Below are positions 12,769 through 49,388 of a stretch of 64,000 bases of DNA, one piece after another (the first letter of the stretch is position 1; each line of letters opens with the position of its first letter). Position numbers and translations under genes: made by a program. A model generated the notes under the pieces. The model worked only from the letters and a program-made list of their open reading frames with translations, had not been told where the DNA came from and ran no database searches. Source of the stretch: an uncultured Clostridia bacterium (lineage in GTDB: Bacteria > Bacillota > Clostridia > TANB77 > CAG-508); NCBI GenBank assembly GCA_944388605.1, contig CALXJJ010000005.1:5966-69965 (forward strand). The letters are read 5' to 3'.

Positions 12769-13527
12769 ATGATATTAAGAATGGATGTAAAAGAAAAAAA
12801 GCATGTTATAAAAAGTTATTTAGGTCTTTCAGCTTTAGTAATAATATTTATATTGGTTGCTATATCTATAATGAAATATGAAGTAGAAGGAGAAAAAAAT
12901 ATGCCTTTTTTACTTTCAAAAATAATGGTAATAAGTACAGCAGAGGGAGTTAGTAAAGAAGAAGTACAAGAAGGGCAAAAATGGAATTTAGATGTAATGC
13001 AAGATAACGACGTATATATAACAATAAATAAAAATGAAGAATATAAAAAAGAAGATATGATAGAAAAAGTAATACTAGAAAATATAAAAATAACAAAAGT
13101 ACCTAAAAAAGGTACAGTCAAAATTTATATGCCAAATAGTTCGGCTGGTAAAGTATATGAATTTAAACAAGAATACGAAGTTATAGATAGATTAGAGTAT
13201 AATGGGGCAATGCAAAGTAATCCAAAGACATTGGAAATAGGAAACCAAGGAGGAATGATACAAATAAGATTTGCTAATACATATTTAGGGGAATATGTTT
13301 CATCTAATGATGATGTTATAAAACATGATGGAACATTAATTTCAAAAACAGATGCAAATTTGGAAGATTTACAATTCAGTGTGAATTTTGATTTGATTAT
13401 AAAAACAAAAAATGAAAGTTATAAAGCAAATATAAATTTAGACTTCCCACAAGGAGATATTATTAATGAAGGAACTGGAACAATGACAAAAGATGATGTA
13501 TCAAATATAATTTTTAAAAGAATTTAG
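12769..13527 (+). CDS. Hypothetical membrane-anchored protein (N-terminal TM helix, 252 aa)
   Basis: Intact ORF with a single N-terminal hydrophobic helix. No family recognised. Confidence 0.5.
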   Translation: MILRMDVKEKKHVIKSYLGLSALVIIFILVAISIMKYEVEGEKNMPFLLSKIMVISTAEGVSKEEVQEGQKWNLDVMQDNDVYITINKNEEYKKEDMIEKVILENIKITKVPKKGTVKIYMPNSSAGKVYEFKQEYEVIDRLEYNGAMQSNPKTLEIGNQGGMIQIRFANTYLGEYVSSNDDVIKHDGTLISKTDANLEDLQFSVNFDLIIKTKNESYKANINLDFPQGDIINEGTGTMTKDDVSNIIFKRI

Positions 13528-13749
13528 GATTACAAATATATAACCTATAGCTATTAATAGTTATAGGTTATATATTTGTACATACATAGTCAGTGTCACT
13601 TTTTTTGTGAACTACATATATTATAATATATTTTTTTTATTTGTCAAACTATTTTTTTAAATTTCCAGAAAAATTTATAACCACACATTTTTTATATAAA
13701 AAATGAAAAAATACTTGATAAAAATATAAAAAGGTTATATAATCATTAA

Positions 13750-21769: not shown

Positions 21770-22052
21770 TTGTATAAAAGTCGCTAGTCGCTACGTTCTA
21801 AGATTGCAGTCAAATTTCTTTCATAAAATTGACATATGAACAAATTAGTAGAAAATTAAATAGGAAAATATTAATGTTTTCAGATTTGTTCTACAATAGG
21901 AAAGTTATCCTTTCCTATTGTATCAAAGTCGCTACGCTCTAACGACTGCATACAATTTTGACTTCGTAAAATTGGCTTAGGAACAAATTTACTAAAAAGC
22001 TAATGAGGAAAGATAAAATTAATATAAATTTTAAGGCTTTCAGATTTGTTCT
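21770..22052 (+). repeat. Intergenic repeat family, copy B (degenerate half-copy plus full copy in tandem)
   Basis: Degenerate copy at 21770-21892 (GTCGCTACGTTCTAAGATTGCAGTC...CAGATTTGTTCT). Full hairpin-plus-body copy at 21893-22052. Confidence 0.8.
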
Positions 22053-22110
22053 TAATATACTATATGTTAAATTATATGAAAATAGATAGTAAGAAAGGAA
22101 TGATATAAAA

Positions 22111-22680
22111 ATGGTAGACATAGAAGTTGTAAAAAACGAAATCAAAAATAGATTATCAGAAGATAGATATATACATTCTTTAGGAGTAATGGAAGAATGT
22201 GAAAAATTAGCAAAATTGTACAATGTAAATGAAGAAGAAGCTCGATTAGTTGGGATAAGTCACGATATAGCAAAAGAAATGAAACTAGAGGAGTATTTGG
22301 AATATGCAACGCAAAATAAAATACAAATAGATAGGATAGAAATAGAAATACCAAGTATTTTACATGGAAAGATAGGTGCAGATATAGTCAAAAAGAAATA
22401 TAATTTTACAGAGGAAATGTGTAAAGCAATCTGTTATCATACTACAGGGGTAGAAAACATGTCTAATTTAGCAAAAATATTATATGTTTCAGATAAAATA
22501 GAAAAAAATAGAAAAGAAGAAAATTATAATATTGAAAGAGCAAGAAAATTAGCAGAAGAAGATATTAATAAAGCAATAATATTTTTATTAGAAGAAGGAA
22601 TAAAATTAAATATTGATAGAAAAAAATTACTTCATCCTAATAGCATATTAGCAAGAAATTATTTAATAAAAGAAATATAA
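22111..22680 (+). CDS. HD-domain bis(5'-nucleosyl)-tetraphosphatase YqeK-like
   Basis: HD motif (HSLGV...HDIAK). 189 aa. Confidence 0.7.
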   Translation: MVDIEVVKNEIKNRLSEDRYIHSLGVMEECEKLAKLYNVNEEEARLVGISHDIAKEMKLEEYLEYATQNKIQIDRIEIEIPSILHGKIGADIVKKKYNFTEEMCKAICYHTTGVENMSNLAKILYVSDKIEKNRKEENYNIERARKLAEEDINKAIIFLLEEGIKLNIDRKKLLHPNSILARNYLIKEI

Positions 22681-22744
22681 AACTATTTAAAATCATAGTT
22701 ATATGTGATATAATATTACCACCATTAAATGGGAGGATGTTGAA

Positions 22745-23647
22745 ATGTTATTTAAAGACTACTATAAAATATTGGGATTGGAAGATAATAAAGCAACAAA
22801 AGAAGAAATAAAAACAGCTTTTAGAGAACAAGCAAAAAAATATCATCCAGATGTAAATGTAGAAGATAAAATTGCAGAAGAGAAATTTAAAGATATAAAC
22901 GAAGCTTATAAAGTATTAGAAAATATTAATACAAGAAAAAAATATGATAGGGCTTGGAATGCTAATATAGGGAAAAAAAGAGAAAAAGAGCAAAATAAAA
23001 AAGACGAGATGTTTACAGATTTATTTAGTATATTCGTTGGTCCAAGAAAAAGGAAAAATATAAATATGATAGAAAAAAAGAAGCAAGCAATGAGGGGAGA
23101 AGATATCGAAACAGAAATAAAAGTAGGAATTGAAGAGGCTTTTTATGGAACAGAAAAGAAGATATCATTAAGAGCAGTAAATGGGAAAATGAAAACTTTT
23201 ACAATAAAAATTCCAGCAGGAATAAGAGATAATGAAAAAGTACGTTTATTAGAACAAGGAAAACCAGGAACAAATGGAGGAAGAGCTGGAGATTTATTAA
23301 TAAAAATACAAATTCAAGATTCAAATATTTATAAATTAGTAGGTTATGATATACATACAGATTTACTATTATCACCATGGGAAGCAGCACTAGGAACAAA
23401 AGTACCAGTTCAAACAATAGATGACACTATTACAATATATGTGCCTAAAGGAATTGAAAGTGGAGAAAAAGTAAGAATACCAGGCAAAGGATATAAAGAT
23501 GGTAGAGGAGGAAGAGGAGACTTAGTTACCACTGTAAAAATTATGGTACCTAAGAATATGTCTGAAGAAGAAGTTAAACTTTTTCAAAAGCTGAATGAAA
23601 TATCTAAGTTTCAACCAAGAAAACAATATATTGTTAACATAAATTAA
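22745..23647 (+). CDS. J-domain protein, CbpA-like (J domain plus DnaJ C-terminal domains, no zinc finger)
   Basis: YYKILGL...KYHPD J-domain motif. No CxxCxGxG repeats. Confidence 0.75.
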   Translation: MLFKDYYKILGLEDNKATKEEIKTAFREQAKKYHPDVNVEDKIAEEKFKDINEAYKVLENINTRKKYDRAWNANIGKKREKEQNKKDEMFTDLFSIFVGPRKRKNINMIEKKKQAMRGEDIETEIKVGIEEAFYGTEKKISLRAVNGKMKTFTIKIPAGIRDNEKVRLLEQGKPGTNGGRAGDLLIKIQIQDSNIYKLVGYDIHTDLLLSPWEAALGTKVPVQTIDDTITIYVPKGIESGEKVRIPGKGYKDGRGGRGDLVTTVKIMVPKNMSEEEVKLFQKLNEISKFQPRKQYIVNIN

Positions 23648-23656
23648 AGAATAATA

Positions 23657-23685
23657 TTGACATAATTTCAAAAAAATAGTATAAT
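23657..23685 (+). promoter_or_regulatory. Consensus sigma-A promoter (TTGACA, 17 nt spacer, TATAAT)
   Basis: Both hexamers are perfect, about 65 nt upstream of the 23752 ORF. Confidence 0.65.
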
Positions 23686-23751
23686 AAATGCTAGTGTTAC
23701 AAGAGACAAAATATGTGAATATTATTCATATAGATAAAGGGGTGGAATTAT

Positions 23752-24276
23752 ATGGAATATATACAAGGAAAACATTTTAGTATAACAGACCCACAAGGAG
23801 TAAATACAATAATATATAGAATTAACAAAACAGAAAAAGAATATTTAAAAGACTTTCCGAAATATACAGTAGAAAGATTAGAATATGCAGAGGAACTAAA
23901 AGGTGATTTGAAAAAGAAAACCTTTTTTATAGATGAGCCCTCTGATACAGGAGAAGACCTAGTATTTTTATCTTTTGGAAAAGAAAAAGTAGTTGTAAAT
24001 ATGGGTGAATTGGAAAATAATAAGATAAAAATATCTAAAAAACCAATACCCGTAAAGTTTAATACATTATATTCAGAAAAAGAAACAGAATATAAAGAAT
24101 TTAAATACACTCCTAATTTAAAAAGACCAATAACAATAATAGACCCAGAAACAACAGAAGAAATAAAGCCAGTTCTTTATTTAGATGAAAATACAAATGA
24201 GGTGAAGGGAAAGTGTAAATTAAAACCATATAAATCATATTTTTCATTTGAGATTAAAGACAATAGTGATCAATAA
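23752..24276 (+). CDS. Hypothetical protein (174 aa, soluble, K/E-rich)
   Basis: GGGGTGG RBS. First gene of a 3-gene operon. No family recognised. Confidence 0.55.
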   Translation: MEYIQGKHFSITDPQGVNTIIYRINKTEKEYLKDFPKYTVERLEYAEELKGDLKKKTFFIDEPSDTGEDLVFLSFGKEKVVVNMGELENNKIKISKKPIPVKFNTLYSEKETEYKEFKYTPNLKRPITIIDPETTEEIKPVLYLDENTNEVKGKCKLKPYKSYFSFEIKDNSDQ

Positions 24277-24290
24277 AAGGAGGATTATAG

Positions 24291-24590
24291 ATGAGTCAAA
24301 CAAATGTAGATTCAAAAAAGCCTACAATATCAGTAGTAATGTTTGGAACAGAAAAAGAAAATGATAGGTATATAGTAGAAACAAATGATAACATGTCATC
24401 AGAACAAATAACTAATATAGAACCTATAATTCAATTGGATAAAAACATATTAAGCATATTAAGTAAAGATGATATTTTACATACTGATAATGGTGAAATT
24501 AAAATGAAAAGCGGAGCATTTAAGAGAATAGAAGAAAAAAGACAAGAAAGACATGCTTCAAATAAAATACAATCAGATAAATCAAGATAA
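24291..24590 (+). CDS. Hypothetical protein (99 aa)
   Basis: AAAGGAGG RBS. Second gene of the operon. Confidence 0.55.
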   Translation: MSQTNVDSKKPTISVVMFGTEKENDRYIVETNDNMSSEQITNIEPIIQLDKNILSILSKDDILHTDNGEIKMKSGAFKRIEEKRQERHASNKIQSDKSR

Positions 24591-24612
24591 AACTTAGAAA
24601 AAGGTGAAAACC

Positions 24613-26586
24613 ATGAAAGATAGATTAAAAAGAACTCTAAAAAAAAATAGGACAAGTTTTATAATTATATTAGTACTATGGGTTATAATATCCATAGTAC
24701 TTGTTGCGCCTATTGCATATGCAATAGGTAAATCACAAGTAAATGGAGTTTTTAATCCAAATACATTTATACAAGAGCTATTCCCAGCAATAACTAGTTT
24801 TACATCGATAGGAAAAATTTTTAGTGAAGGATATTTAAGTATATATGGTTCTGTATTATTATATTTTACAATAATATTTATTATATTATCAGCAATAGGA
24901 CTATATAAATCGAGAATTAAAAGTGATTATACAGATATTGAACACGGATCAAGTGATTGGAGTGAAAATGGAGAACAATATCAAATTTTAAGTAGAAATA
25001 AAGGAATTATATTAGCACAAAATAATTATTTGCCCATAGATAAAAGGGGAAATATAAATACTTTAATTGTCGGAGGATCAGGATCAGGTAAATCAGCATC
25101 ATATTCAATACCAAATGCATATCAAATGCTAGGTTCATATGTTTTTACAGATCCTAAAGGAGAGCTTTATGATAAAACAGCAGGTTATTTACAATCACAT
25201 GGATATGAAATTAAAGTATTAAATCTAGTTAATCCTGCAAATAGTGATGGATATAATCCTCTTATGCATATTGCTAGTGAACTAGACGTAGACGTTATTG
25301 CAAATACAATAGTAAAAGGTCAAAAATCAGACAGTTCATCAGATCCATATTGGGATGATATGGCTGAAATGTTATTAAAAGCATTAATATATTATCTTTT
25401 AGCAACAAGACCAGAAGAAGAACAGAATTTAGCTAGTTGTTCTGAACTAGTAAGAGCTGCAAATAGTAATGGAGGAAATAATCTATTAACAGAATTAATT
25501 AACCAATTACCATATGATCATCCAGCAAGAATGTATTATAAATCAATAGAAATAGCACCAGAAAAAACATATGGTTCAATTTTAAGTTCATTACAATCTA
25601 AATTAGGTAAATTTGATTCAAAAGAAATAGCAGAAGTAACATCTACAGATACAATAAATTTTGAGGAAATAGGAACAAAGAAAACAGCAGTATATGTAAT
25701 TTCTTCAGATACACATACTGCATATGATTTCTTACTTACTATATTCTTTTCACAAATGATACAGCAATTATATAATTTTGCCGATGAAAATGGAGGAAGA
25801 TTAAAAACACCAGTATTTTTCATATTAGATGAGTTTGCTAACATAGGAAAAATACCAGATTTCGATAAAAAAATATCTACATCAAGAAGTAGAGGTATAC
25901 AATTTAGTGTAATATTACAAAATTTAGATCAGTTAGAAGCAGTTTATGAAAAGTCATATGAGACAATAATGGGAAATTGTGATACACATGTTTTTTTAGG
26001 TAGTAATTCATTTAAAACAGTAGAATATTTTTCAAAAACATTAGGAGAAAAAACTATCTCAAGAGCAAGTACATCAATAAATAGGGATAAACAATACCAT
26101 AGGCAAGGAGTAAGTGATTCAGAGCAAATAATGGGAAGGGCACTAATGACTCCTGATGAATTAAGAAGAATGGATAATGATTTATGTATTATATTTGTTA
26201 AAGGAATAAAGCCAGTAAAAGCAAAAAAATACTATTATTTTGAATCAAGTATGGCAAAAAAACTGGAGGAACATACCCTTAATCATAATAGCTTTGATGC
26301 AGGAAATAGAGGGGTATGGAGGAAGTATAATCCATATAATCCATGGGTACCAGAAGAAAAAGAAGTAAAACAACAAGATTTAAAAATTGAATCATTAGAT
26401 GACTTGTTTGAAGATTTAGATGAGAAAGAAGAAAAAAATGAAATAAATATAAAAGAAGATAGTAAAAAAACTAATAATCTTAAAACTGAAGAAGCTCCAG
26501 TATTACCTGGAACAGAAGAAGAATTAGATATACAAAAAGAATTAGAAGCAAAATTTGATGAATTATTTGGATCAGAAAATAATTAA
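24613..26586 (+). CDS. VirD4/TraG/TraD-family coupling-protein-like ATPase (2 N-terminal TM helices)
   Basis: Walker A GGSGSGKS and Walker B FFILDEFANIG. TraG-D_C-like C-terminal region. No relaxase or T4SS genes nearby. Confidence 0.7.
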   Translation: MKDRLKRTLKKNRTSFIIILVLWVIISIVLVAPIAYAIGKSQVNGVFNPNTFIQELFPAITSFTSIGKIFSEGYLSIYGSVLLYFTIIFIILSAIGLYKSRIKSDYTDIEHGSSDWSENGEQYQILSRNKGIILAQNNYLPIDKRGNINTLIVGGSGSGKSASYSIPNAYQMLGSYVFTDPKGELYDKTAGYLQSHGYEIKVLNLVNPANSDGYNPLMHIASELDVDVIANTIVKGQKSDSSSDPYWDDMAEMLLKALIYYLLATRPEEEQNLASCSELVRAANSNGGNNLLTELINQLPYDHPARMYYKSIEIAPEKTYGSILSSLQSKLGKFDSKEIAEVTSTDTINFEEIGTKKTAVYVISSDTHTAYDFLLTIFFSQMIQQLYNFADENGGRLKTPVFFILDEFANIGKIPDFDKKISTSRSRGIQFSVILQNLDQLEAVYEKSYETIMGNCDTHVFLGSNSFKTVEYFSKTLGEKTISRASTSINRDKQYHRQGVSDSEQIMGRALMTPDELRRMDNDLCIIFVKGIKPVKAKKYYYFESSMAKKLEEHTLNHNSFDAGNRGVWRKYNPYNPWVPEEKEVKQQDLKIESLDDLFEDLDEKEEKNEINIKEDSKKTNNLKTEEAPVLPGTEEELDIQKELEAKFDELFGSENN

Positions 26587-26600
26587 ATAAGTAAAAACAA

Positions 26601-26650
26601 AAACGAAGCTTATTAATAATAAATAATTGTTAATAAGCTTCGTTTGTTTT
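26601..26650 (+). terminator. Rho-independent terminator after the VirD4-like gene
   Basis: AAACGAAGCTTATTAA...TTAATAAGCTTCGTTT hairpin followed by a T-run. Confidence 0.65.
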
Positions 26651-26651
26651 T

Positions 26652-26808
26652 ATACAATAGGAAATGATATGAAACTTTGAGTTGCGTAACTTAAAGTTTC
26701 ATATCATTTCCTATTGTATAAAAAGGATTACACATAAATTTACTAAAAAGAAAAAGATAGAAGTTTTAAGTTTTAATTAGTATAATTTTAAAATTTTCAG
26801 ATTTGCTA
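26652..26808 (+). repeat. Intergenic repeat family, copy C (variant with enlarged hairpin and degenerate body)
   Basis: TACAATAGGAAATGATATGAAACTTTGAG...CTTAAAGTTTCATATCATTTCCTATTGTA, then ...AAATTTACTAAAAAG...TTTTCAGATTTGCT. Confidence 0.65.
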
Positions 26809-26914
26809 TAGATACAATCCAAACCATAAAAACAAAACAAAAGTTTGCAAAAGCTGTTGACTTTAACAGTATATGTGTGATATAAAATTATACAAAGGAG
26901 GCAGAGTACAACAA

Positions 26915-27970
26915 ATGAAAATATTGCATTTAGCAGATATGCATTTTGATAGTCCTTTTTCTATGTTAGATGATATTTTAAACATTGGTATAGAAAGAAG
27001 AATTGATCAGAGAAATGCATTAAAAAAAGTAATAGAATATGTAAAATTAGAAAAAATAAAATATTTGTTAATAGCAGGAGATTTATATGAGCATGAGTAC
27101 ATAAGAGAAAGTACAATAGAATTTATAAATAAATTATTTATTGAGATCCCAGGAACAAGAGTTTTTATCTCTCCAGGAAACCATGACCCATTTTTAAGAG
27201 AATCATATTATAGTAATTATAAATGGAGTGAAAATGTACATATATTTTCTAACAATTTAGAGGTGATAGAAACACAAGAAGCTGATATTTATGGAATTGG
27301 ATTTACAGACTTTTATGAAGAGGAATTAGATGTAGAAAAAATAAATATTAAAAATAAAGAAAAAATAAATATATTATTGTTACACGCAGATTTAAACGGA
27401 AATAGTAAATATAGACCTGTGTCTTATAATAAAATAAATAATTTGGGATTTGATTATGTTGCATTAGGGCATATACATAAAACAAATTATTTACAAAGTA
27501 AAAATATAATATATCCGGGTTCTGCAATTTCATTGGGATTTGATGAATTGGGAGAACACGGAATGATTATGGCAGATATTGAGAAAGGTATAGTAAATAA
27601 AAAATTTATAAAATTAGATGAAAAGGAATTTATTGAATACAATTTAGATATAAGTGAAATTAATTCTATAGAAGAATTAGTAGAAAGAATAAATGAGATA
27701 AAAATAAACGAAAATAATAAAATAATTAAATTAATATTTAAAGGAATAAAAAATTTTAATATTAATTTGAATGAAATTGAAAGATTAATAACGAATAAAC
27801 AAATAATAAAAATAAAAGATGATACAAAAATAAATATTAATATAGAAAAAATAAAAAACGAAAATACATTAAAAGGATTATTTATTAAACAAGTATTAAA
27901 TGAAATACAAGATGAAAAAATAAAAAACAAAATAATAGAAATAGGATTAAAAAGTTTTGAAAAAAAATAA
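26915..27970 (+). CDS. Mre11/SbcD-like metallophosphoesterase (YhaO-like)
   Basis: Calcineurin-like motifs (HLADMHFD, GDLYE, GNHD). Start taken at MKILHL after a GGAGG RBS. Confidence 0.7.
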   Translation: MKILHLADMHFDSPFSMLDDILNIGIERRIDQRNALKKVIEYVKLEKIKYLLIAGDLYEHEYIRESTIEFINKLFIEIPGTRVFISPGNHDPFLRESYYSNYKWSENVHIFSNNLEVIETQEADIYGIGFTDFYEEELDVEKINIKNKEKINILLLHADLNGNSKYRPVSYNKINNLGFDYVALGHIHKTNYLQSKNIIYPGSAISLGFDELGEHGMIMADIEKGIVNKKFIKLDEKEFIEYNLDISEINSIEELVERINEIKINENNKIIKLIFKGIKNFNINLNEIERLITNKQIIKIKDDTKININIEKIKNENTLKGLFIKQVLNEIQDEKIKNKIIEIGLKSFEKK

Positions 27971-27994: not shown

Positions 27995-29917
27995 ATGAAA
28001 ATTAAAAAAATAAAAATAAATTCGTTCGGAAAATTAAAAAATAAAGAAATTAATTTTAATAAAAAAATAAATATTATTTATGGTGAAAATGAAAAAGGAA
28101 AATCTACTTTATTAAAATACATTATTTCTATTTTTTATGGATTATCAAAAAATAAAAGAGGAAAAGAAATATCTGAATATGAAAAATATATTCCTTGGGA
28201 CGGAGGAGATTTTTCAGGAAAAATAGAATATGAATTAAATAGTGGTGAACAATATGAAATATATAGAAGTTTCCATAATAGGGAAATTAGAGTATATAAT
28301 GACATGAAAGAAGAAATAACAAATCAGTATCAAATTGACAAAAATAGTGGAGTAAAGTTTTTTGAAGAGCAAACAAAAATAGATGAAGAAATGTTTAAAA
28401 ATGCTTTAGTAAGTTTGCAAGGTCATGTAACAATAGATTCACAAGTACAAAATAATTTAATGCAAAAGATTGCAAATCTTTCGGATAGTGGACAAGATGA
28501 TATTAGCTTTAATAAAGTAATAGACAATTTAAATAAAATGCAAAATGAAGAAATAGGAACATTAAGAACAAAAGATAGGCCATATAATAAAGTATTAGAG
28601 AAATTAGAAAAAGCACAAATTGACTTAAAGACAATAGAAATAAATGAAAATAGATTAGAAGAAATAAGAATAGAAAAAGAGAAAATTTATGAAGAAAATA
28701 ATGGCGAAACAGTTGTCAATAATATAATTATGGAAACCAAAAGGATAGAAGAAAAAAAATCAGAAGTAGAGAAAAAAAATAATTTTATAAAAAAAATAAT
28801 AGATGAGAATAAAATAAAAATAAAAAATCTAGAAAATGAAAGAGAAAAAATAATAAAAGATTATGAAAAAAATAAAAATAAAAAAGAAATAAAAAAAATA
28901 AATAAAATTAATTATTTAATTATTTTTTTTATTTTAATAATAATAAATATTGTTCAATTAATTTTTTTAAAAAATAAAATAATAAATTATTTATTATTAT
29001 TTTTAATTCCAATTTTTTTATTAATATATTTTATTAAAATAAAAAATAATAAAAAACAAACAAAAATAAATAAAAAAATAGAAAATGAACAAAAAAATAA
29101 ATTAGAAAATAATATAAATATTTTAAATAGTAAAATGGAATTATTAAAACAAAATAATAAGGAAAATAAAATTAAAATAGAAAAAAGCAGAGAGGAAATT
29201 GAAAAAATAATAGAAATAGAAAGAGAAAATATAATAAAAAGATATATTAACAAATTAAGTTTAAATAAAATAAATGAAATATTAGATATTGAAAATTTGG
29301 AAAATAAATTAATTAAAAATAATAATAAAATAAATAACAATAAAATTAAAATTAAAGAATTAGAAATAGAAGAAAAAAATATAAAAAATAAAATAGATGA
29401 GAAAATTAATTTAATAGAAAAAATAGAAAAATTAAAAAATATAAAATGTGAATTAGAAGAAAAAAATAAAATATATGAAGAAACAAAAGAATTAATGAAA
29501 AGTGCATATGAAAAGATGAAAAAAAATATAACTCCTAAATTTGTAGATAATTTATCACAAGCAATAAATAAAATATCAAATGGAAAATATAAAAATATTT
29601 CGATAAGTACAGAAAAAGGAATAATTGTTGAAAATGAAAATGGAAAATATATTCCAGTCAGTTTATTAAGTATGGGTACAATAGATGAATTATATTTATC
29701 ATTAAGAATTTCTATGATAGAAGAATCATCAAATGAAAGTATGCCAATTATATTAGATGAAGCATTTGCATATTTTGATGATGAAAGATTAGAAAAAACG
29801 CTAGAATATTTAATAAATTATTCAGATAAACATCAAATAATTTTATTTACATGTACAGATAGAGAAAAGAAAATCTTAGATAAAAAAAATACAGAGTACG
29901 AAATGATAAAAATATAA
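27995..29917 (+). CDS. SbcC/Rad50-like AAA ATPase (YhaN-like) with a central predicted TM hairpin
   Basis: N-terminal Walker A (GENEKGKST). C-terminal signature and D-loop region (LSMGTIDELYLSLRI...ILDEAFAYFD). K/N-rich coiled coil. Two hydrophobic helices mid-protein. Confidence 0.65.
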   Translation: MKIKKIKINSFGKLKNKEINFNKKINIIYGENEKGKSTLLKYIISIFYGLSKNKRGKEISEYEKYIPWDGGDFSGKIEYELNSGEQYEIYRSFHNREIRVYNDMKEEITNQYQIDKNSGVKFFEEQTKIDEEMFKNALVSLQGHVTIDSQVQNNLMQKIANLSDSGQDDISFNKVIDNLNKMQNEEIGTLRTKDRPYNKVLEKLEKAQIDLKTIEINENRLEEIRIEKEKIYEENNGETVVNNIIMETKRIEEKKSEVEKKNNFIKKIIDENKIKIKNLENEREKIIKDYEKNKNKKEIKKINKINYLIIFFILIIINIVQLIFLKNKIINYLLLFLIPIFLLIYFIKIKNNKKQTKINKKIENEQKNKLENNINILNSKMELLKQNNKENKIKIEKSREEIEKIIEIERENIIKRYINKLSLNKINEILDIENLENKLIKNNNKINNNKIKIKELEIEEKNIKNKIDEKINLIEKIEKLKNIKCELEEKNKIYEETKELMKSAYEKMKKNITPKFVDNLSQAINKISNGKYKNISISTEKGIIVENENGKYIPVSLLSMGTIDELYLSLRISMIEESSNESMPIILDEAFAYFDDERLEKTLEYLINYSDKHQIILFTCTDREKKILDKKNTEYEMIKI

Positions 29918-44319: not shown

Positions 44320-47300
44320 ATGAAAAAAATAAATAAAATTTTATCAGTACTACTAGTTTTTACAATGATGTGGACTTACTTATCTGTGATTTTGTCATTC
44401 ACAAATGAAGTATATGCATCATCTAACGAATTAGAGTCACAAGATAAAGATACAGGAAATAGTAATGTGGAATTTGATAGTTATTTTGATGGAGGAGTAC
44501 ACAGCATAAAATCTGATATTAATTCACAAGATACAAAAATTCATATGAATATTAAAGTGAAGAATGCAGGCTACCTTAAAGATGCAAAAATAAAGGTTAG
44601 CAATGCTAATTTTGTGTTGTCTGGTGATATGGTAGAAGGTGTGCAAAGTATAGATACAAACTCTGGAGAAATAGCATTAGAACAAATAAATAATGGAGAT
44701 GACAAAACATATAGTTTTACAATTTATCCAAGAAAAGACGATTTGATAAATGTAGATAATTTCGTAAAAGAAAATGAAATACTTTTTGAAGGTACATATA
44801 TAAATAAAGATGGAGAAGAGGAAAAAGTACAATCTACTATAAAGGATAAGATAGAATGGAATGGTAATGCAAAAATAAATGTAGAAGCAAATGTAATTAA
44901 AAATATACCATTTAGCATAAAGAGCGGAAAAGGAGAAATTTTACAAGTAGAAGTAAAAACAAATGTAGTAGACAATCTATTACCAATCAAAACAAATGAA
45001 TTAAATATTGTGGTTCCTATGATAAATAATATATTGCCAGATGATGTAAATGTTATGGCAAAAGATACAATAGCAACAAATGGAAAAGATGGAGTAGACT
45101 TTACAGAAGAAAATTATTCATATGACAAAGAAAAAGGAATCTTAAATATAAAAGTAGAAAATAATCCAGAAGAAGAAAAAATAGATTGGAGAAAAAATGA
45201 ACAGGATGAATTTATAATAACATATGTATATAATAATGAAGAAGTTTATAATTATATGACAGCAAATGAAACATTAATAAATTCAGAAATAACGAGTAAT
45301 ATGTCATTATATAATAATGAAGAAACAAAAATAGAAACAAAAATTAATTTAAATACATCAGTAAAAGAGCAAATAGGAGACATTGTTACATTAACACCAA
45401 GTATAGAAACACAAACATTATCAAAAGCATATATATATGCAAATTATGATAAATCAGAAAATAAAGAAGAAACTAATTATACTCAAAAATATAGAGTAGA
45501 AGTAGCAGTATCAAATATTATAGATGAACTTGAAATAAATGAACAATATGATGCATTTATTATAAATGGAGAGCAAGGATTAACAACAGTTGCAGGTACA
45601 AATTATGCATACAACAAAAAAGTGTATATATCAGAAAAAATATTTAATAAAATTTTAGGAGAAAATGGATATATAAATTTAATAGATATAAATGGAAATA
45701 CAATAGGAACAATAAACAAAGATACACAAAGAGATGAAAATGGAAATATGTATATTGATATTTCTGGATTAGATAATAATATGGTAAAAATGCAGATAAG
45801 TAAACCAATAACAGAAGGAAATATAGATATTTTCATAGATAAAGCAATAAAAGGTGAAATAGCATACAGTAAAGAGCAATTAAAAGATACGACAAGTTTA
45901 AGAATGTTTTCAGATATAAAAGTTATAAATAATGACTCTGTAATAGCAGAAAGACAAGCAGAAGCAGAAAAAGAATTTATAGAACCAAAAACAACAGCAG
46001 AGATAGAAATAAATAATACAAGTTTATCAAGCATAGTAACAAATGAAGATGTAGAAATTAAAGCAATATTAAGAACAGATAGTGTAGAAAACGCATTGTT
46101 TAAAAATCCAACAATTAGAATAGACTTACCAGAATATATAGAAAATATAAATGTAAAAAATGTTTATATTGCATATGATGATGAACTAAAAATAACAGAA
46201 GCTAACCTATTTGAAGAAAATGGGCATAAAGTAATAGAAATAAGATTAGAGGGAACACAAACTAAGTATAACATTGGTTCAGTAACTAAAGGAACAAATA
46301 TAGTTATTGTTGGAGATATAACAGTTAAGAAATTAACACCAACAGTAGATACAGAAATAAAAATGACATATACAAACGAAAATAGTACAGAATTAGAAAA
46401 TATTATGGCAAAAACAAGAGCAAGAACATTAAGTTTAGTTACTCAAGAAGTTTCTACAAAAATACAAATAGTTGCTCCAACAGGATTAGTTACAGTAAAT
46501 GAAATACAAGGATTTTCTGCAAATGGAACTAAAATTACATCAATAAGCGGAGAAGAACAAACAGGAAAATTAGAATATAGAGGAGAACAAAGAACAGCCA
46601 AAGTTACAGGAACAATAATAAACAATTATGAAAATGATTTAAATAATGTTAGGATTTTAGGAAGATTACCTGTAACAGGAGTAATGAATAATACATTTGA
46701 CGCAAAAATAAATTCTGAGATTAATTTAACAGGAGCAAATGCAACAATATATTATAGTACAAAAGCAGATGCAACAGATGATATTGGAAATACTGGAAAT
46801 GGATGGACAACAACATTTACTGCAGAAGCTAAATCATATTTAATAGTAATTGACGGAAATGTTACAAGAAGTGCACAACTAAGCTTTACATATGATATTT
46901 TAATACCTGCAGATTTAGATTATTATCAAACAATTGCAGAAAAATACAGTGTAATGTTTAATAATTTGATGCCAGACAATATACAAGCTCAAACAGAAAA
47001 TTCACCGCTTGCTACATTAACAACAGGAGAAGGAGTTAAACTAGAAGCAAGTTTAGCAGTAGAAGGAAATGGAAAAGAAGTATATAGAACAAGAGAAAAT
47101 ATAAAATATATAGCAACAATTAAGAATACAGGAAATTTGGATGCAGAAAATGCAAAAATAACATTTGATATTCCAGAAGGAATGTTATATATGGAATATG
47201 ATGATGGTAATACAATATTTGAACATCCAGAAACACCATTTAATGGAATAGATGTAGGATTAATAAAAGCAGGAGAAACAAAGCAAGTAACATTTTATTT

Positions 47301-49368
47301 ACAAGTAAATGTAGCTTCAGATGAAGAAACAACAGATGTAAAATTAAGTGCAAATATTACAGCAGATAAGTTAGACAAACCGATTTCTACAAATGAAGTA
47401 ACAATTAAGACTATAAGAGGACAATTTGAGATAATGAACAGAACAAATACATTAGATGGAGAAGAATTTGCAGAAGGAGCAAGAATAATATATGAAGTAA
47501 CAGTAAGAAATTACAATGTAACAACACAAAATGAACAGCCTGTAAAACAAAGTACAACAAATACAACAGTAACAATACCATTACCTAAAAATAGTCAAAT
47601 CTTAGATAAATATGTTGCAGAATCTGGTGGCGGACAAAAATTAGATATAGAAATAAATGAATCAAATAATACATTAACTGTAAATTTAGGTACATTAGAA
47701 TATTTGGATAGTAGATATATTTATGTAGAATATTTAATCGGAGCAGATGCAGTAGGAGATTTTAATACACAAGTAAGTGTTAGAGCAGATGGAATAGATG
47801 AGCACTATTCAAATAATAAAGTAATGCATATTAAAGCAATAGATTTAGAATTAGTTCAAAATGATATTGATAAAGAATATGTAAAAGAAAGAGAAGTATT
47901 TAAATATAAATTTACATTAACAAATTTAACAGGAACAGCAATAAAAGATGTTGTAATAGAAGATATAATACCAAAAGAAGTAATATTTGATGAACATTTA
48001 GTTGCTTATCAAGTTGATGAAAATGGAAATACGATAGTAAATCCAGATACTAAGGAACCAATTCCAGAAAAAATATTATACATATATACTGAAGATGGAA
48101 CAGAATATAATAGAGTATATACATATAACTCTAATAATGGAAATGCAGTAATAAACTTAGATACATTAGATGCTAATACAACAGTATATATAGAACTTGC
48201 TGTAAGAGCAGGAACAGTTGAAGATGATACAGAAGTAACAAATTATGCTAAAATATCTGCAAATGGAGTACAAGAGAAAGAATCAAATAAAATAACACAT
48301 TATATAGAATATACTCCAGAAAATCATGGTGAAACACCAGAAAAAGAGGGTAGATATAAAATAACAGGAACAGCATGGTTAGATGCAGATAAAAATGGAC
48401 AAAGAGACGATGGAGAAGAATTATTATCAAATATAAGAGTAATGTTAATGAATGTAGATACAAACCAAATTGCAGTAGATGCAGATAATGGTGAACAAAA
48501 AATAGTAACAACAAATTCAAATGGTAAATATGAATTCTCAAATCTATTACCAGGAAGATATATAGTTATATTTGTATATGATGCAAGTAAATATTCAATA
48601 ACAGATTACAAAAAAGAAAATGTATCATCAACAGTAAATTCAGATGCAATATTAATGAAAATGGATATAGATGGAAAATTAACTAATGTTGGTGCAACAG
48701 ACACAATAGTTGTAACAAATGAAAATATTAGAAGTATGGACATTGGATTATATGAACAAAAGAAATTTGACTTAAAATTAGAAAAATACATTACAAAAAT
48801 AACAGTTCAGAATAATACAGGAACAAAAACATATGATTATGGAGAAACACAATTAGCAAAAAGAGATTTAATTGCAAGCCAAATGAATAATACAAACTTA
48901 GTAGTAGAATATAAAATTAAAGTTATAAATGAAGGACAACTAGAAGGATATGCTAAAAAGATTATAGACTATTTACCAAAAGAATTAAAATTCAGTACAG
49001 AACTAAATCCGGATTGGTATTTAGGACAAGATGGCAATATATATAATGCAAGTTTAGCTGATACAAAGATAAATCCAGGAGAAACAAAAGAAATAACATT
49101 AATATTAACAAAAGCGACATCAAAGAGTGATAATTTAGGATTAATAACAAATAAAGCAGAATTATATGAAGTTTCAAATGATTATGGAGTAGAAGATATA
49201 GACTCAACACCAAATAACAATGTACAAAATGAAGATGATACTTCAATAGCAAATTTACTATTATCACCAGGAACTGGTAGAACAGTATTATTTGTAGTAT
49301 TAACAACAGTAATAATAATAATAATTGGAGTAGGAGTTTACTTCATAAAGAAAAAGGTAATAAAATAA
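44320..49368 (+). CDS. Giant cell-wall-anchored surface protein (1682 aa): DUF11/CARDB-like repeats and an SdrD-B/CnaB-like domain
   Basis: AGGAGG RBS and signal peptide. SdrD-B-like segment (TGTAWLDADKNGQRDDGEELL...TNSNGKYEFSNLLPGRYIV). C-terminal SPGTG motif, hydrophobic helix and KKKVIK tail. Confidence 0.8.
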   Translation: MKKINKILSVLLVFTMMWTYLSVILSFTNEVYASSNELESQDKDTGNSNVEFDSYFDGGVHSIKSDINSQDTKIHMNIKVKNAGYLKDAKIKVSNANFVLSGDMVEGVQSIDTNSGEIALEQINNGDDKTYSFTIYPRKDDLINVDNFVKENEILFEGTYINKDGEEEKVQSTIKDKIEWNGNAKINVEANVIKNIPFSIKSGKGEILQVEVKTNVVDNLLPIKTNELNIVVPMINNILPDDVNVMAKDTIATNGKDGVDFTEENYSYDKEKGILNIKVENNPEEEKIDWRKNEQDEFIITYVYNNEEVYNYMTANETLINSEITSNMSLYNNEETKIETKINLNTSVKEQIGDIVTLTPSIETQTLSKAYIYANYDKSENKEETNYTQKYRVEVAVSNIIDELEINEQYDAFIINGEQGLTTVAGTNYAYNKKVYISEKIFNKILGENGYINLIDINGNTIGTINKDTQRDENGNMYIDISGLDNNMVKMQISKPITEGNIDIFIDKAIKGEIAYSKEQLKDTTSLRMFSDIKVINNDSVIAERQAEAEKEFIEPKTTAEIEINNTSLSSIVTNEDVEIKAILRTDSVENALFKNPTIRIDLPEYIENINVKNVYIAYDDELKITEANLFEENGHKVIEIRLEGTQTKYNIGSVTKGTNIVIVGDITVKKLTPTVDTEIKMTYTNENSTELENIMAKTRARTLSLVTQEVSTKIQIVAPTGLVTVNEIQGFSANGTKITSISGEEQTGKLEYRGEQRTAKVTGTIINNYENDLNNVRILGRLPVTGVMNNTFDAKINSEINLTGANATIYYSTKADATDDIGNTGNGWTTTFTAEAKSYLIVIDGNVTRSAQLSFTYDILIPADLDYYQTIAEKYSVMFNNLMPDNIQAQTENSPLATLTTGEGVKLEASLAVEGNGKEVYRTRENIKYIATIKNTGNLDAENAKITFDIPEGMLYMEYDDGNTIFEHPETPFNGIDVGLIKAGETKQVTFYLQVNVASDEETTDVKLSANITADKLDKPISTNEVTIKTIRGQFEIMNRTNTLDGEEFAEGARIIYEVTVRNYNVTTQNEQPVKQSTTNTTVTIPLPKNSQILDKYVAESGGGQKLDIEINESNNTLTVNLGTLEYLDSRYIYVEYLIGADAVGDFNTQVSVRADGIDEHYSNNKVMHIKAIDLELVQNDIDKEYVKEREVFKYKFTLTNLTGTAIKDVVIEDIIPKEVIFDEHLVAYQVDENGNTIVNPDTKEPIPEKILYIYTEDGTEYNRVYTYNSNNGNAVINLDTLDANTTVYIELAVRAGTVEDDTEVTNYAKISANGVQEKESNKITHYIEYTPENHGETPEKEGRYKITGTAWLDADKNGQRDDGEELLSNIRVMLMNVDTNQIAVDADNGEQKIVTTNSNGKYEFSNLLPGRYIVIFVYDASKYSITDYKKENVSSTVNSDAILMKMDIDGKLTNVGATDTIVVTNENIRSMDIGLYEQKKFDLKLEKYITKITVQNNTGTKTYDYGETQLAKRDLIASQMNNTNLVVEYKIKVINEGQLEGYAKKIIDYLPKELKFSTELNPDWYLGQDGNIYNASLADTKINPGETKEITLILTKATSKSDNLGLITNKAELYEVSNDYGVEDIDSTPNNNVQNEDDTSIANLLLSPGTGRTVLFVVLTTVIIIIIGVGVYFIKKKVIK

Positions 49369-49388
49369 GGAAAGGAGGATAAAATTAG

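Follow-up and report, generated by a model that had tools for sequence, protein, structure and literature searches.

A VirD4/TraG-family coupling ATPase without linked conjugation genes in a conserved three-gene operon of low-GC gut Clostridia

What does a coupling ATPase do when its gene lies among housekeeping genes, with no secretion channel encoded beside it? To our knowledge, coupling proteins have been understood solely as gatekeepers of type IV secretion. The question is raised by a three-gene operon located at 23657-26653 on the (+) strand of a 64-kb stretch of DNA, hereafter the window. An earlier note on this DNA had described a perfect TTGACA-17-TATAAT promoter, two small soluble proteins of 174 and 99 aa, a 657-aa VirD4/TraG ATPase with two TM helices, GGSGSGKS and ILDEF, and a clean terminator. 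All of these elements were recovered, and their coordinates are listed in Table 1.

Table 1. Positions of the operon features in the 64-kb window.
Feature	Position	Strand	Description
Sigma-A-type consensus promoter	23657..23685	+	-35 TTGACA 23657-23662, 17-nt spacer, -10 TATAAT 23680-23685; 12/12
5'-UTR hairpin ATATG-N11-CATAT	23711..23731	+	directly 5' of ribosome-binding site AAAGGGGTGG (23736-23745)
A174, soluble 174-aa protein	23752..24276	+	undescribed domain: N-terminal Ig-like beta-sandwich and highly conserved C-terminal half
B99, small soluble hypervariable protein	24291..24590	+	positional orthologues 50-141 aa
T4CP, 657-aa VirD4/TraG-family coupling ATPase	24613..26586	+	Pfam and NCBIfam matches
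Predicted TM helix 1, T4CP aa 14-38	24652..24726	+	Kyte-Doolittle 19-residue mean up to 3.2
Predicted TM helix 2, T4CP aa 78-98	24844..24906	+	Kyte-Doolittle 19-residue mean up to 2.4
Walker A region, GTC GGA GGA TCA GGA TCA GGT AAA TCA (V-G-GSGSGKS)	25066..25095	+	in frame in the window
Walker B FFILDEF, T4CP aa 402-408	25816..25836	+	alignment columns at least 95% conserved
Tail motif 1 GVWRKYNPYNPW, T4CP aa 567-578	26311..26346	+	conserved in 79 aligned orthologues
Tail motif 2 ESLDDLFEDL, T4CP aa 593-602	26389..26418	+	conserved in 79 aligned orthologues
Tail motif 3 KELEAKFDELFG, T4CP aa 642-653	26536..26571	+	near-invariant in orthologues; proposed A174 docking helix
Intrinsic terminator	26601..26653	+	20-bp stem (26601-26645), 5-nt loop, then T run

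The operon promoter was the sole 12/12 match between 22000 and 27200, and the whole window contained two such matches in total over both strands, compared to 0.26 in shuffles. Of 77 related species, 74 keep the perfect promoter at 42-105 nt (mostly 42-75 nt) upstream of the A174 start, and the remaining three have an 11/12 version. As judged from its promoter, the operon is probably highly expressed. The 174-, 99- and 657-aa genes were likewise called by independent gene callers in other assemblies of the same species. The GC content was 0.25-0.30 throughout the operon, equal to that of the flanks.

The 657-aa protein is a VirD4/TraG coupling protein of the CD1115 family (hereafter T4CP), as assigned from its sequence matches. 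It matched T4SS-DNA_transf (PF02534, E=9.6e-83) and TraG-D_C (PF12696, E=7.4e-39), and its all-alpha domain was matched by TrwB_AAD_bind (PF10412, E=2.7e-28 over aa 147-529). The NCBIfam model NF045973 ('VirD4-like conjugal transfer protein, CD1115 family') scored 452 bits against a cut-off of 250, and the closest solved relatives were H. pylori Cag5 (8dol) and TrwB (1e9r). No FtsK/SpoIIIE feature was matched, neither PF01580 or related models at E<=0.01 nor a gamma DNA-recognition domain. The protein consists of a 2-TM anchor, a nucleotide-binding domain with Walker A GGSGSGKS at aa 154-161, an all-alpha domain and an acidic C-terminal tail. Translation from the ATG gives 657 aa, and a GTG three codons upstream would give 660 aa. 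Within the tail, motif 3 (ELEAKFDELFG) was the best-conserved stretch; it was retained as EELEKKFDELFG in a 43%-identical orthologue from the distant L091 lineage, where motif 1 was not found.

Annotation of the surroundings confirmed the housekeeping neighbours that had been named before (yqeK-like, cbpA-like, yhaO/yhaN and prfA). The operon is accompanied by an HD/YqeK-like gene, a DnaJ+DnaJ_C (CbpA-like) gene, Metallophos/AAA_27 (YhaO/YhaN-like) genes, prfA, an LMW phosphatase gene and pcrA, and farther away by murF, ypeB, sleB, recR, ybaB, dnaX, mreBCD, PBP2, minC and spoIIE. The reported absence of a nearby relaxase, VirB4, integrase or other T4SS or ICE gene was borne out, as no conjugation, T4SS, relaxase or integrase/recombinase gene was detected in the 64-kb window. 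Furthermore, tblastn searches with VirB4, relaxase, PrgI, DUF3801 and FtsK-like queries against 1.76 Mb, comprising the window and 113 related loci, returned the T4CP itself only. Marks of a mobile element (integrase, flanking repeat, adjacent tRNA or GC anomaly) were not found at the operon. The proposed check for att sites or tRNA-proximal integration gave no flanking repeat, and the closest tRNA genes lay about 11 kb away.

The CD1115-family VirD4/TraG/TrwB T4CPs of Firmicute plasmids and ICEs share with the window T4CP the 2-TM anchor, the Walker A/B domain, the all-alpha domain and a C-terminal extension. The plasmid T4CPs were 34-39% identical to it over the ATPase core, and 39% at most. 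In one of the two plasmid contexts examined, relaxase, DUF3801, T4CP, PrgI and VirB4 formed a string; in the other, an FtsK-like gene, T4CP, PrgI and VirB4 were adjacent and the relaxase lay about 5 kb upstream. These two plasmid members differ from the window T4CP, which is not linked to genes for a relaxase, DUF3801/PcfB, PrgI, VirB4 or a cell-wall hydrolase; unlike the CD1115 plasmid members, the window T4CP is also vertically inherited at a fixed housekeeping locus. The earlier view that a coupling protein without a linked channel or DNA-processing partner is atypical was supported and strengthened. Neither adjacent conjugation genes nor a described non-T4SS subfamily with the same partners was found, and a literature search on orphan or domesticated T4CPs returned nothing relevant.

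Conservation was analyzed in the best 80 species-representative genomes, which are low-GC gut Clostridia; the carriers, among them Clostridium sp. CAG:508, form a clade of family to order rank. All 80 had the T4CP gene; upstream of it, 79 also had A174 and 77 the DnaJ-like gene. The three genes, whose joint conservation had been proposed as a check, stay together at the same chromosomal place: the order DnaJ-like gene, A174, small ORF and T4CP, within the same housekeeping neighbourhood, was conserved in at least 80 species-level genomes, and murF/ypeB and sbcDC/prfA flanks often recurred around it. The T4CP showed 61-85% identity among the 80 species, and its pairwise identity correlated with those of prfA, pcrA, ypeB and cbpA (r = 0.80-0.89). 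Its mean identity (73%) was higher than those of ypeB (60%) and murF (59%). The T4CP is under strong purifying selection, with dN/dS of 0.02-0.14 in 11 of 12 pairs. The L091 orthologue likewise keeps a small ORF and an A174-like gene as partners; its operon lies elsewhere among housekeeping genes, flanked by gyrA and dnaX.

The two partner proteins contain no hydrophobic segments and had no match in Pfam, NCBIfam, PADLOC or PHROGs. A174 is a previously undescribed domain, with dN/dS of 0.04-0.12, and no relatives were found in plasmids, PHROGs or viral contigs. DUF3801/PcfB, the usual upstream partner of CD1115 T4CPs, was considered as its identity and rejected, since A174 had no Pfam match and its profile, when aligned by hhalign to a DUF3801 protein from a plasmid, reached a probability of 0.3%. 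Neither A174, nor B, nor the tail motifs were seen with plasmid T4CPs. The gap between A174 and T4CP was filled by an ORF at every locus examined. The homologues of B99 among 5.8 billion proteins were only four near-identical sequences from the same species, and tblastn at 1e-5 against the related loci found nothing; therefore, orthology of B99 is positional only. An N-terminal motif M-S-x-T-x-V-x-S is common to B in the clade of the window. B evolves fast, with dN/dS of 0.24-1.17.

Over 30 long proteins with TIR, Sel1 and kinase domains were also found to contain a domain like A174, which the A174 profile matched at E values down to 1e-32. Among 32 such long fusions, 21 had the motif [LIVM]xxxFxx[LIM]F 59-100 aa N-terminal of the A174-like domain, compared to 0.27 of 32 in shuffles, and no match occurred in 16,453 other residues. 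The fusion motif, for example ADEELEAKFEELFG and NELESKFEELFG, matches the conserved C-terminal ELEAKFDELFG of the T4CP, and the T4CP tail motif was its only hydrophilic match within the window. Since motif and domain occur in one chain of these fusions, A174 is predicted to bind the terminal ELEAKFDELFG helix and so to dock on the T4CP tail. In an AF2 model of one fusion (P0214), computed on an alignment of only 7 sequences, the motif helix had a pLDDT of 30-42. The shared motif and domain provide a protein-protein interaction prediction and tie the operon to the TIR/Sel1 protein family.

The fusion proteins of gut Firmicutes, such as the Sel1 repeat protein of Eubacterium plexicaudatum ASF492 (UniRef100_N1ZYX0), resemble the operon in having the full A174 domain and an ELExKFxELFG motif. 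Unlike the operon products, each of them joins effector-type domains and Sel1 repeats in one long polypeptide, and they lie in variable, mobile-element-like or CARF-containing settings without a membrane T4CP operon partner. Their genes were found in strings that include a CARF gene, within TIR arrays and close to a serine recombinase gene, and soluble T4CP/TrwB-like ATPases were encoded 2-9 kb away in three of five contexts.

In some relatives, one extra C splits the Walker A region of the T4CP gene. Among the 80 related genomes, 10 carry this split gene, as do 22 of 27 loci from metagenomes. The T4CP gene of the window has Walker A in frame without the extra C. The candidate shift site in the relatives is GGA/GGC-C-GGN, in which a 0-frame CGG directly follows a Gly codon and the +1 codon is GGU or GGA. 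CGG was used 0-2 times per 2,100-15,000 codons sampled in these genomes. The site was conserved among diverged species, and two frameshifted pairs had dN/dS of 0.044 and 0.089. The downstream frame was also conserved, under purifying selection, and therefore a programmed +1 frameshift is suggested as a candidate route by which the T4CP of these relatives is made. An internal start was considered for the frameshifted genes, as a TTG stands two codons before GSGSGKS in many loci, but it is missing from loci in which GTA or GGC stands before the site, and these loci have no in-frame start codon. Such a start has no ribosome-binding site and would delete the strand before the P-loop, and it was judged unlikely.

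Frameshifting by +1 at rare or slow codons is described for bacterial prfB, yeast Ty3 and glass-sponge mitochondrial genes, the last of which shift at a rare CGG_A/UGG_A next to GGA (PMC5009743). The relatives' Walker A site has the same geometry of CGG next to GGA as the sponge genes. The upstream Shine-Dalgarno stimulator of prfB has no evident counterpart at the putative shift site, which, unlike the known +1 cases, lies inside a catalytic motif. The CGG frameshift would be a rare candidate for +1 programming of a bacterial cellular gene outside prfB, and it bears on the use of near-unassigned codons in very low-GC genomes.

The explanation that we prefer, with somewhat better than even confidence, is that the operon is a domesticated T4CP module, derived from a T4CP of the CD1115 family of a conjugative element, and that this module is by now fixed in a low-GC gut Clostridia clade, where it is inherited vertically and serves as a core function that is probably highly expressed. 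Since the conjugation machinery is probably lost and the gene is strongly conserved as a core gene, the T4CP now probably serves another job. We know of no T4CP that translocates anything without a T4SS channel, and this weighs against the domesticated reading. In the domesticated module, the T4CP would be held in the membrane by its two N-terminal helices and, by family membership, would presumably form a ring that moves or remodels a substrate with ATP. The three conserved short motifs of the acidic tail may act as docking sites, and A174, as suggested by the fusions, would be the receptor or adaptor bound to the terminal helix. Fast-evolving B could speculatively be a specificity factor, a modulator or the cargo. 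The module would act without a genetically linked T4SS, whose absence was seen in the neighbourhood. In a large subclade, the conservation of the shift site suggests that the full ATPase would additionally need a +1 frameshift at the almost unused Walker A CGG, from which the window gene is exempt.

A more specific version is put forward tentatively, as a minority possibility: a T4SS-independent coupling-ATPase machine, into which an entire clade of abundant uncultured gut Clostridia would have converted a conjugation T4CP. It would work at the membrane as a translocase or sensor, essential-like and highly expressed, whose tail recruits the new adaptor domain A174, a domain also used in cis by the TIR/Sel1/kinase immune-type proteins, and whose dosage is set in many species by the +1 frameshift at an effectively unassigned CGG. 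Such a machine would be neither conjugation, effector secretion nor a described defence system, and would thus be a new kind of system.

The tail of a T4CP is an adaptor platform in known systems, as in Legionella DotL with IcmS/IcmW/LvgA and in the F-plasmid TraD tail with TraM; the F TraD tail is likewise acidic, and its end is a Phe-containing peptide. By analogy, the window T4CP may be similar in having a C-terminal extension with short docking sites for small soluble substrate-selecting proteins. However, the DotL and TraD systems have a complete secretion channel, whereas docking in the operon is deduced from the shared motif and the fusions only, and no sequence relationship of A174 or B to the DotL or TraD adaptors was found.

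Among the other explanations, a role in defence or conflict is unlikely. The T4CP-like ATPase of such a membrane module would engage incoming phage or conjugative DNA, with A174 as sensor or adaptor and B as a rapidly evolving specificity component. That A174 domains occur in TIR/Sel1/kinase proteins beside CARF genes, TIR arrays and a serine recombinase suggests a part in conflict or defence more than a housekeeping transport role. The nearby soluble ATPases and the dN/dS of B of up to about 1 are consistent with this, although the former may merely mirror a mobile-element setting. On the other hand, the operon encodes no effector domain (nuclease, TIR or toxin), phage contigs and plasmids yielded no relatives of A174, and the fixed position, near-universal presence in the retrieved genomes and strong purifying selection are unlike defence islands. 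The T4CP weakly matched the PADLOC model mad8 (E=1.7e-8, 32 bits), which speaks for the defence reading; as this was the single match in PADLOC-DB v2, with none for A174 or B, a known anti-phage system was rejected. A split locus, in which the T4CP serves a T4SS or conjugation system encoded elsewhere in the chromosome and A174 and B are substrate-recruiting accessories, is considered quite improbable. In its favour, the T4CP is an ordinary CD1115-family sequence whose TM anchor, Walker motifs and all-alpha domain are intact, all T4CPs known to us work with a T4SS, and the search covered the window and 113 loci of genomes of about 1.5 Mb. Nevertheless, T4SS and relaxase genes were absent within 64 kb here and about 10 kb at the related loci, and both plasmid T4CPs examined were tightly linked to PrgI and VirB4. 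Core-gene-like conservation in at least 80 species also contrasts with the usually patchy distribution of conjugative elements, and identity to the plasmid T4CPs does not exceed 39%.

T4CPs and FtsK belong to one ATPase superfamily, and the T4CP could have taken over FtsK/SpoIIIE-like chromosomal DNA handling (segregation, repair or uptake) at the membrane. The sbcCD-like, pcrA and recR/dnaX neighbours in the window and the gyrA-dnaX site in L091 are compatible with this idea, but neighbourhood conservation may be mere synteny. It becomes very doubtful because the T4CP has neither an FtsK_SpoIIIE Pfam match nor a gamma domain, and a consensus vegetative promoter would be unexpected for a division- or sporulation-timed translocase. 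The earlier note also offered a dedicated translocation system for the two small proteins and an ATPase put to another use, and both of these readings may still apply. Its suggestion that an integrated conjugative or mobilizable element has decayed and left this operon behind has a close to negligible likelihood. An isolated T4CP with two small genes is sometimes left by ICE decay; here, the reading was refuted because the locus, with its promoter, is conserved at the same place in at least 80 species and the intact T4CP ORF is under strong purifying selection. The housekeeping-like divergence of the T4CP and the lack of mobile-element marks likewise count against it.

If the domesticated reading holds, a T4CP core gene kept without a linked channel throughout the divergence of these species would show that this ATPase can be reused for another function, and the operon would offer a tractable three-gene system for finding out which. 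One paper (PMC11680825) places CAG-508 among the major families of the uncultured order TANB77 and links this order to immunotherapy response; that paper makes no mention of VirD4 or conjugation. As the carriers of the operon include CAG-508, a conserved and probably abundant membrane machine would be a hallmark of this medically interesting lineage, for which almost no functional knowledge has existed so far.

A further feature was observed in the 5' UTR. An Rfam search of the 5' UTR and the 3' palindrome gave nothing but a spurious sub-threshold plant miRNA match. Most related loci have CTATG-N(6-16)-CATAG at the position of the window hairpin, with ACAAAAGA before it. In the window, A...T replaces the C...G of the relatives, so that both sides of the stem are changed.

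The promoter, three ORFs, coupling-ATPase motifs and terminator claimed in the earlier note were all located in the sequence (see table). The ORFs, encoding A174, B and the VirD4/TraG-type coupling ATPase (T4CP), are co-directional, each has a purine-rich ribosome-binding site, and gene callers returned the same 174-, 99- and 657-aa genes in independent assemblies of the same species. The operon promoter was the sole 12/12 match within 22000-27200; the whole window held two, compared with 0.26 in shuffles. The second, TTGACA-N16-TATAAT at 13620-13647 (minus strand), falls within the gap upstream of dnaX, directed away from that gene and toward an unannotated 252-aa ORF (12769-13527, plus strand).

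Features of the operon and loci carrying the extra C
Feature	Position	Strand	Detail
Promoter, -35 box	23657-23662	+	TTGACA; 17-nt spacer; 12/12 match with -10 box
Promoter, -10 box	23680-23685	+	TATAAT
A174 ORF	23752-24276	+	174 aa
B ORF	24291-24590	+	99 aa
T4CP ORF	24613-26586	+	657 aa
Terminator	26601-26653	+	20-bp stem and T run, ending the operon
Window site homologous to the extra-C site	25066-25095		gene in frame, without the extra C
Genome loci with extra C	e.g. L077:10440-10500		L051, L058, L069, L070, L073, L074, L077-L080
Metagenome loci series concerned			L095-L122

The leader contains a conserved 5'-UTR element, found at 23700-23745 and in the same region of about 65 related loci. 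It consists of ACAAAAGA followed by a hairpin, CTATG-N(6-16)-CATAG, that adjoins the ribosome-binding site; the window version is ATATG...CATAT at 23711-23731. One subclade with shorter leaders lacks the element, which had no match in Rfam. Directly 3' of the terminator is a palindrome (26647-26724) with 37-nt arms that are 97% complementary. It is unique within the window and was seen elsewhere only in four contigs of the same species (L123-L126); its one Rfam match, a sub-threshold plant miRNA, was spurious.

By its profile matches, the ATPase is assigned to the T4CP family, CD1115 subfamily. Pfam T4SS-DNA_transf matched at E=9.6e-83, TraG-D_C and TrwB_AAD_bind also matched, and the NCBIfam equivalog 'VirD4-like conjugal transfer protein, CD1115 family' scored 452 bits against a cut-off of 250. 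Two segments of the protein, aa 14-38 and aa 78-98, are hydrophobic, and it contains a Walker A motif GGSGSGKS and a Walker B motif FFILDEF. Linkage to a T4SS and relaxase, the contextual feature of the T4CP family, was tested and was not found locally. Plasmid T4CPs are at most 39% identical to the window protein and, in both contexts examined, sit inside T4SS gene strings: in one, relaxase, DUF3801, T4CP, PrgI and VirB4, and in the other an FtsK-like gene, T4CP, PrgI and VirB4, where the relaxase gene is some 5 kb upstream.

The window as a whole is ordinary chromosome. Upstream of the operon are pgm, tadA, dnaX, ybaB, recR, sleB, ypeB, a SASP gene and murF, with an HD/YqeK-like and a DnaJ/CbpA-like gene nearest. 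Downstream are YhaO/YhaN-like sbcDC paralogues, prfA, a phosphatase gene, pcrA, mecA and radC, and further on mreBCD, PBP2, minC, two giant surface proteins and spoIIE. The absence of T4SS, relaxase or integrase neighbours remarked on earlier holds, with no VirB4, relaxase, integrase or pilin gene within the 64-kb window. GC content was 0.25-0.30 in operon and flanks alike, and the nearest tRNAs are 11 kb from the operon. The middle part of the YhaN/SbcC-like gene (27995-29917) is extremely AT-rich, its GC content over 600 nt falling as low as 0.09. This part codes for a hydrophobic segment and a coiled-coil-like stretch rich in Lys, Ile, Asn and Glu. The two adjoining giant ORFs at 44320-55130 (1682 and 1913 aa) probably encode adhesin-like proteins of the cell surface; one matches SdrD_B and DUF11, and the other CarboxypepD_reg below threshold.

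T4CP relatives were sought in one genome per species, which gave 535 stretches, and the best 80 were analysed. These 80 all come from uncultured Clostridia of the gut or rumen; Clostridium sp. CAG:508 is among them, as is a closed chromosome of 1.57 Mb. Their T4CPs are 61-85% identical over full length. In this set an A174 gene lies upstream of the T4CP gene in 79 and a DnaJ-like gene in 77, often with murF/ypeB upstream and sbcDC/prfA downstream. The gap between A174 and T4CP was filled by a small ORF (50-141 aa) in every locus examined. The promoter matched at 12/12 positions in 74 of 77 loci and at 11/12 in the remaining three, and its distance to the A174 start was 42-105 nt, mostly 42-75, across the 77.

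Pairwise identity of the T4CP correlated with that of cbpA, prfA, ypeB and pcrA (r = 0.80-0.89), and its mean (73%) was higher than that of ypeB (60%) or murF (59%). In 12 close pairs analysed by Nei-Gojobori, T4CP dN/dS was 0.02-0.14, except for 0.32 in one very close pair. The same method gave 0.04-0.12 for A174 and 0.24-1.17 for B, which had four homologues, all near-identical, among 5.8 billion proteins. A distant lineage (L091/L092), with a T4CP 43% and an A174-like protein 37% identical to those of the window, keeps the order A174-like gene, 55-aa ORF, T4CP at a different yet still housekeeping site, between gyrA and dnaX-ybaB-recR. These comparisons indicate that the operon is a vertically inherited core module.

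Neither A174 nor B has a hydrophobic segment or a match in Pfam, NCBIfam, PADLOC or PHROGs. AF2, using 51 sequences, predicted a beta-sandwich for A174 residues 1-100 (pLDDT 70-84); its confidence was low for the C-terminal half, yet this is the most conserved part. A sequence-profile search of the PDB found no relative of A174. Identity with DUF3801 was considered and rejected, as no relation was found. When 1.84 billion representative proteins were searched with a profile, 374 A174 relatives were found; plasmids and viral contigs yielded no homologue. Some of the relatives are divergent standalone proteins (165-220 aa), and over 30 are long (470-1050 aa) with the whole domain internal. Sel1 repeats, TIR domains or a protein kinase domain were identified in ten of the long proteins, and one cluster member bears the name 'Sel1 repeat protein' (Eubacterium plexicaudatum). 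Two divergent homologues (P0155, P0179) have a C-terminal extension ending DDELIV, which resembles the EDDMLI end of the 55-aa ORF of L091; this likeness is a hint that fusion of A with B may occur. Several A174-domain/Sel1 proteins (P0154, P0200, P0247, P0265) share a C-terminal region of about 300 aa with ...YRNPAAH.D..., whose Rx4H pattern recalls HEPN RNases as a resemblance only; the region had no Pfam match.

The neighbourhoods of the long A174-domain proteins look like conflict systems or mobile elements. In two cases a CARF protein and a protein of about 380 aa lie directly upstream; one context consists of a TIR-protein array, and a serine recombinase occurs in another. Soluble T4CP/TrwB-like ATPases lie within 2-9 kb of the long protein in three of five contexts. 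One of these ATPases belongs to the gene string of the long protein itself and shares 32% identity with the window ATPase core. Two co-directional strings on Firmicute contigs of roughly 44% GC (L087:5310-13030 and L089:1273-13042) look like undescribed conflict systems. One comprises YbjN-like, ClpP, a 421-aa soluble T4CP-like ATPase, CARF, a 385-aa protein and an A174-domain/Sel1 protein. The other runs from OmpA-like, Endonuclease_NS_2, TrwB-like ATPase, a 384-aa protein and M48 peptidase through two small ORFs, CARF, a 379-aa protein and a 78-aa ORF to the fusion protein, and adjoins a serine recombinase. In the TIR array (L086:7013-21294), seven TIR-domain proteins are encoded in a row, with fusions to FtsK_SpoIIIE, Sel1, WD40 or LRR domains. 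An A174-like domain is part of one of the seven, and a PP2C phosphatase and a 1541-aa kinase adjoin the array.

The T4CP tail (aa 546-657) is acidic, with 30 Asp/Glu and 16 Lys/Arg, and contains three conserved islands amid variable linkers: GVWRKYNPYNPW, ESLDDLFEDL and, at the very end, KELEAKFDELFG. In the 43%-identical lineage only the last is retained, as EELEKKFDELFG. The tail-end peptide containing F648 and F652, IQKELEAKFDELFGSENN, shares its motif with long A174-domain proteins, in which it recurs N-terminal to the domain at a fixed spacing (ADEELEAKFEELFG, NELESKFEELFG, IDTRFKELFG, ELVAKFEELFG). The pattern [LIVM]xxxFxx[LIM]F sits 59-100 aa before the A174-like domain in 21 of 32 long proteins, compared with 0.27 of 32 for shuffled segments; the remaining 16,453 residues contained no match. 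Its only hydrophilic match in the window is the T4CP tail. Motif and domain go together, within one chain (in cis) in the fusion proteins and on separate proteins (in trans) in the case of T4CP and A174. From this Rosetta-stone pairing we infer that A174 docks on the T4CP tail. In one fusion protein, AF2 predicted the motif to be helical, but at a pLDDT of only 30-42 on a 7-sequence alignment. DotL with IcmSW/LvgA and the TraD tail with TraM are known tail-plus-adaptor arrangements; the likeness to them may serve as a working analogy, with no homology.

The ATPase is complete, with a membrane anchor, strong selection and a conserved consensus promoter, and is always accompanied by A174 and a small variable ORF; T4SS genes were never found close by. 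We lean towards a domesticated T4CP module whose tail docks an adaptor and which acts with no T4SS linked to it. Judging from its family, the ATPase would form a membrane-bound ring that binds and moves a macromolecular substrate; A174 would be the tail-bound adaptor suggested by the fusions, and B might, speculatively, be cargo, modulator or specificity factor. That the module constitutes a new T4SS-independent system is more doubtful and is offered tentatively. The searchable literature, with incomplete coverage, yielded no description of an orphan core-genome T4CP, the A174 domain or the Walker A frameshift treated below.

A defence or conflict module is suggested by the other homes of A174 in TIR/Sel1/kinase proteins and by the rapid evolution of B; however, the operon has no effector domain and behaves like a core gene, and we consider this reading unlikely. 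Somewhat less probable still is a coupling protein serving a T4SS encoded elsewhere. A tblastn search of 1.76 Mb (the window and 113 loci) with VirB4, relaxase, PrgI, DUF3801 and FtsK-like queries from two plasmids recovered only the T4CP itself. An FtsK-like chromosomal role for the ATPase is very improbable. The decayed remnant proposed in the earlier note has negligible probability; the conservation, promoter, dN/dS and synteny data refute it.

Many relatives carry an extra C within Walker A. It was present in 10 of the 80 genome loci, and in 22 of the 27 metagenome loci whose sequence covers this region. The frameshifted sequence is GT[T/A] GGA C GG[T/A] TCN GGN ..., with GGC instead of GGA in L069. 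At the extra C, the 0 frame reads V-G-R(CGG)-F-W-F-W-stop, and the +1 frame reads G-S-G-S-G-K-S and continues for about 500 conserved codons. Where GTA or GGC precedes the shift site, no in-frame start is possible. Carriers were recovered by many independent studies, and some belong to lineages with only 62-66% identity to the window protein; frameshifted pairs gave dN/dS of 0.044 and 0.089. CGG was absent from the 14,953 codons of the window ORFs and occurred 0-2 times per 2,100-5,600 codons in sampled loci. Glass-sponge mitochondria have +1 frameshift sites with a rare CGG next to a GGA/GGN glycine codon (PMC5009743), and the geometry here matches, with one inserted base creating a rare CGG beside such a codon. 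The site in relatives is a candidate programmed +1 frameshift.

In an NJ tree, frameshifted genes were scattered among in-frame ones within the window's clade. The in-frame genes, those of the 43%-identical lineage included, mostly have the rare valine codon GTC right before the site (25066-25068 in the window; 22 of 858 Val codons in window ORFs), whereas in frameshifted genes this codon is GTT or GTA. Of two nearby positions, one is therefore nearly always a C. The closed HiFi chromosome OZ007016.1 (L079) has a second frameshift, a 1-nt deficit in the TM1 coding region (L079:10060-10080), where it reads CTATGGTGTTTTTTACC and relatives read L-W-V-F/I-L; its T4CP gene may be a decaying pseudogene or reflect an assembly error. 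In one MAG (L067:~6105), an in-frame TGA replaces a conserved Leu codon of the T4CP (YDF*LTIFF), as either a single nonsense change or a sequencing error.
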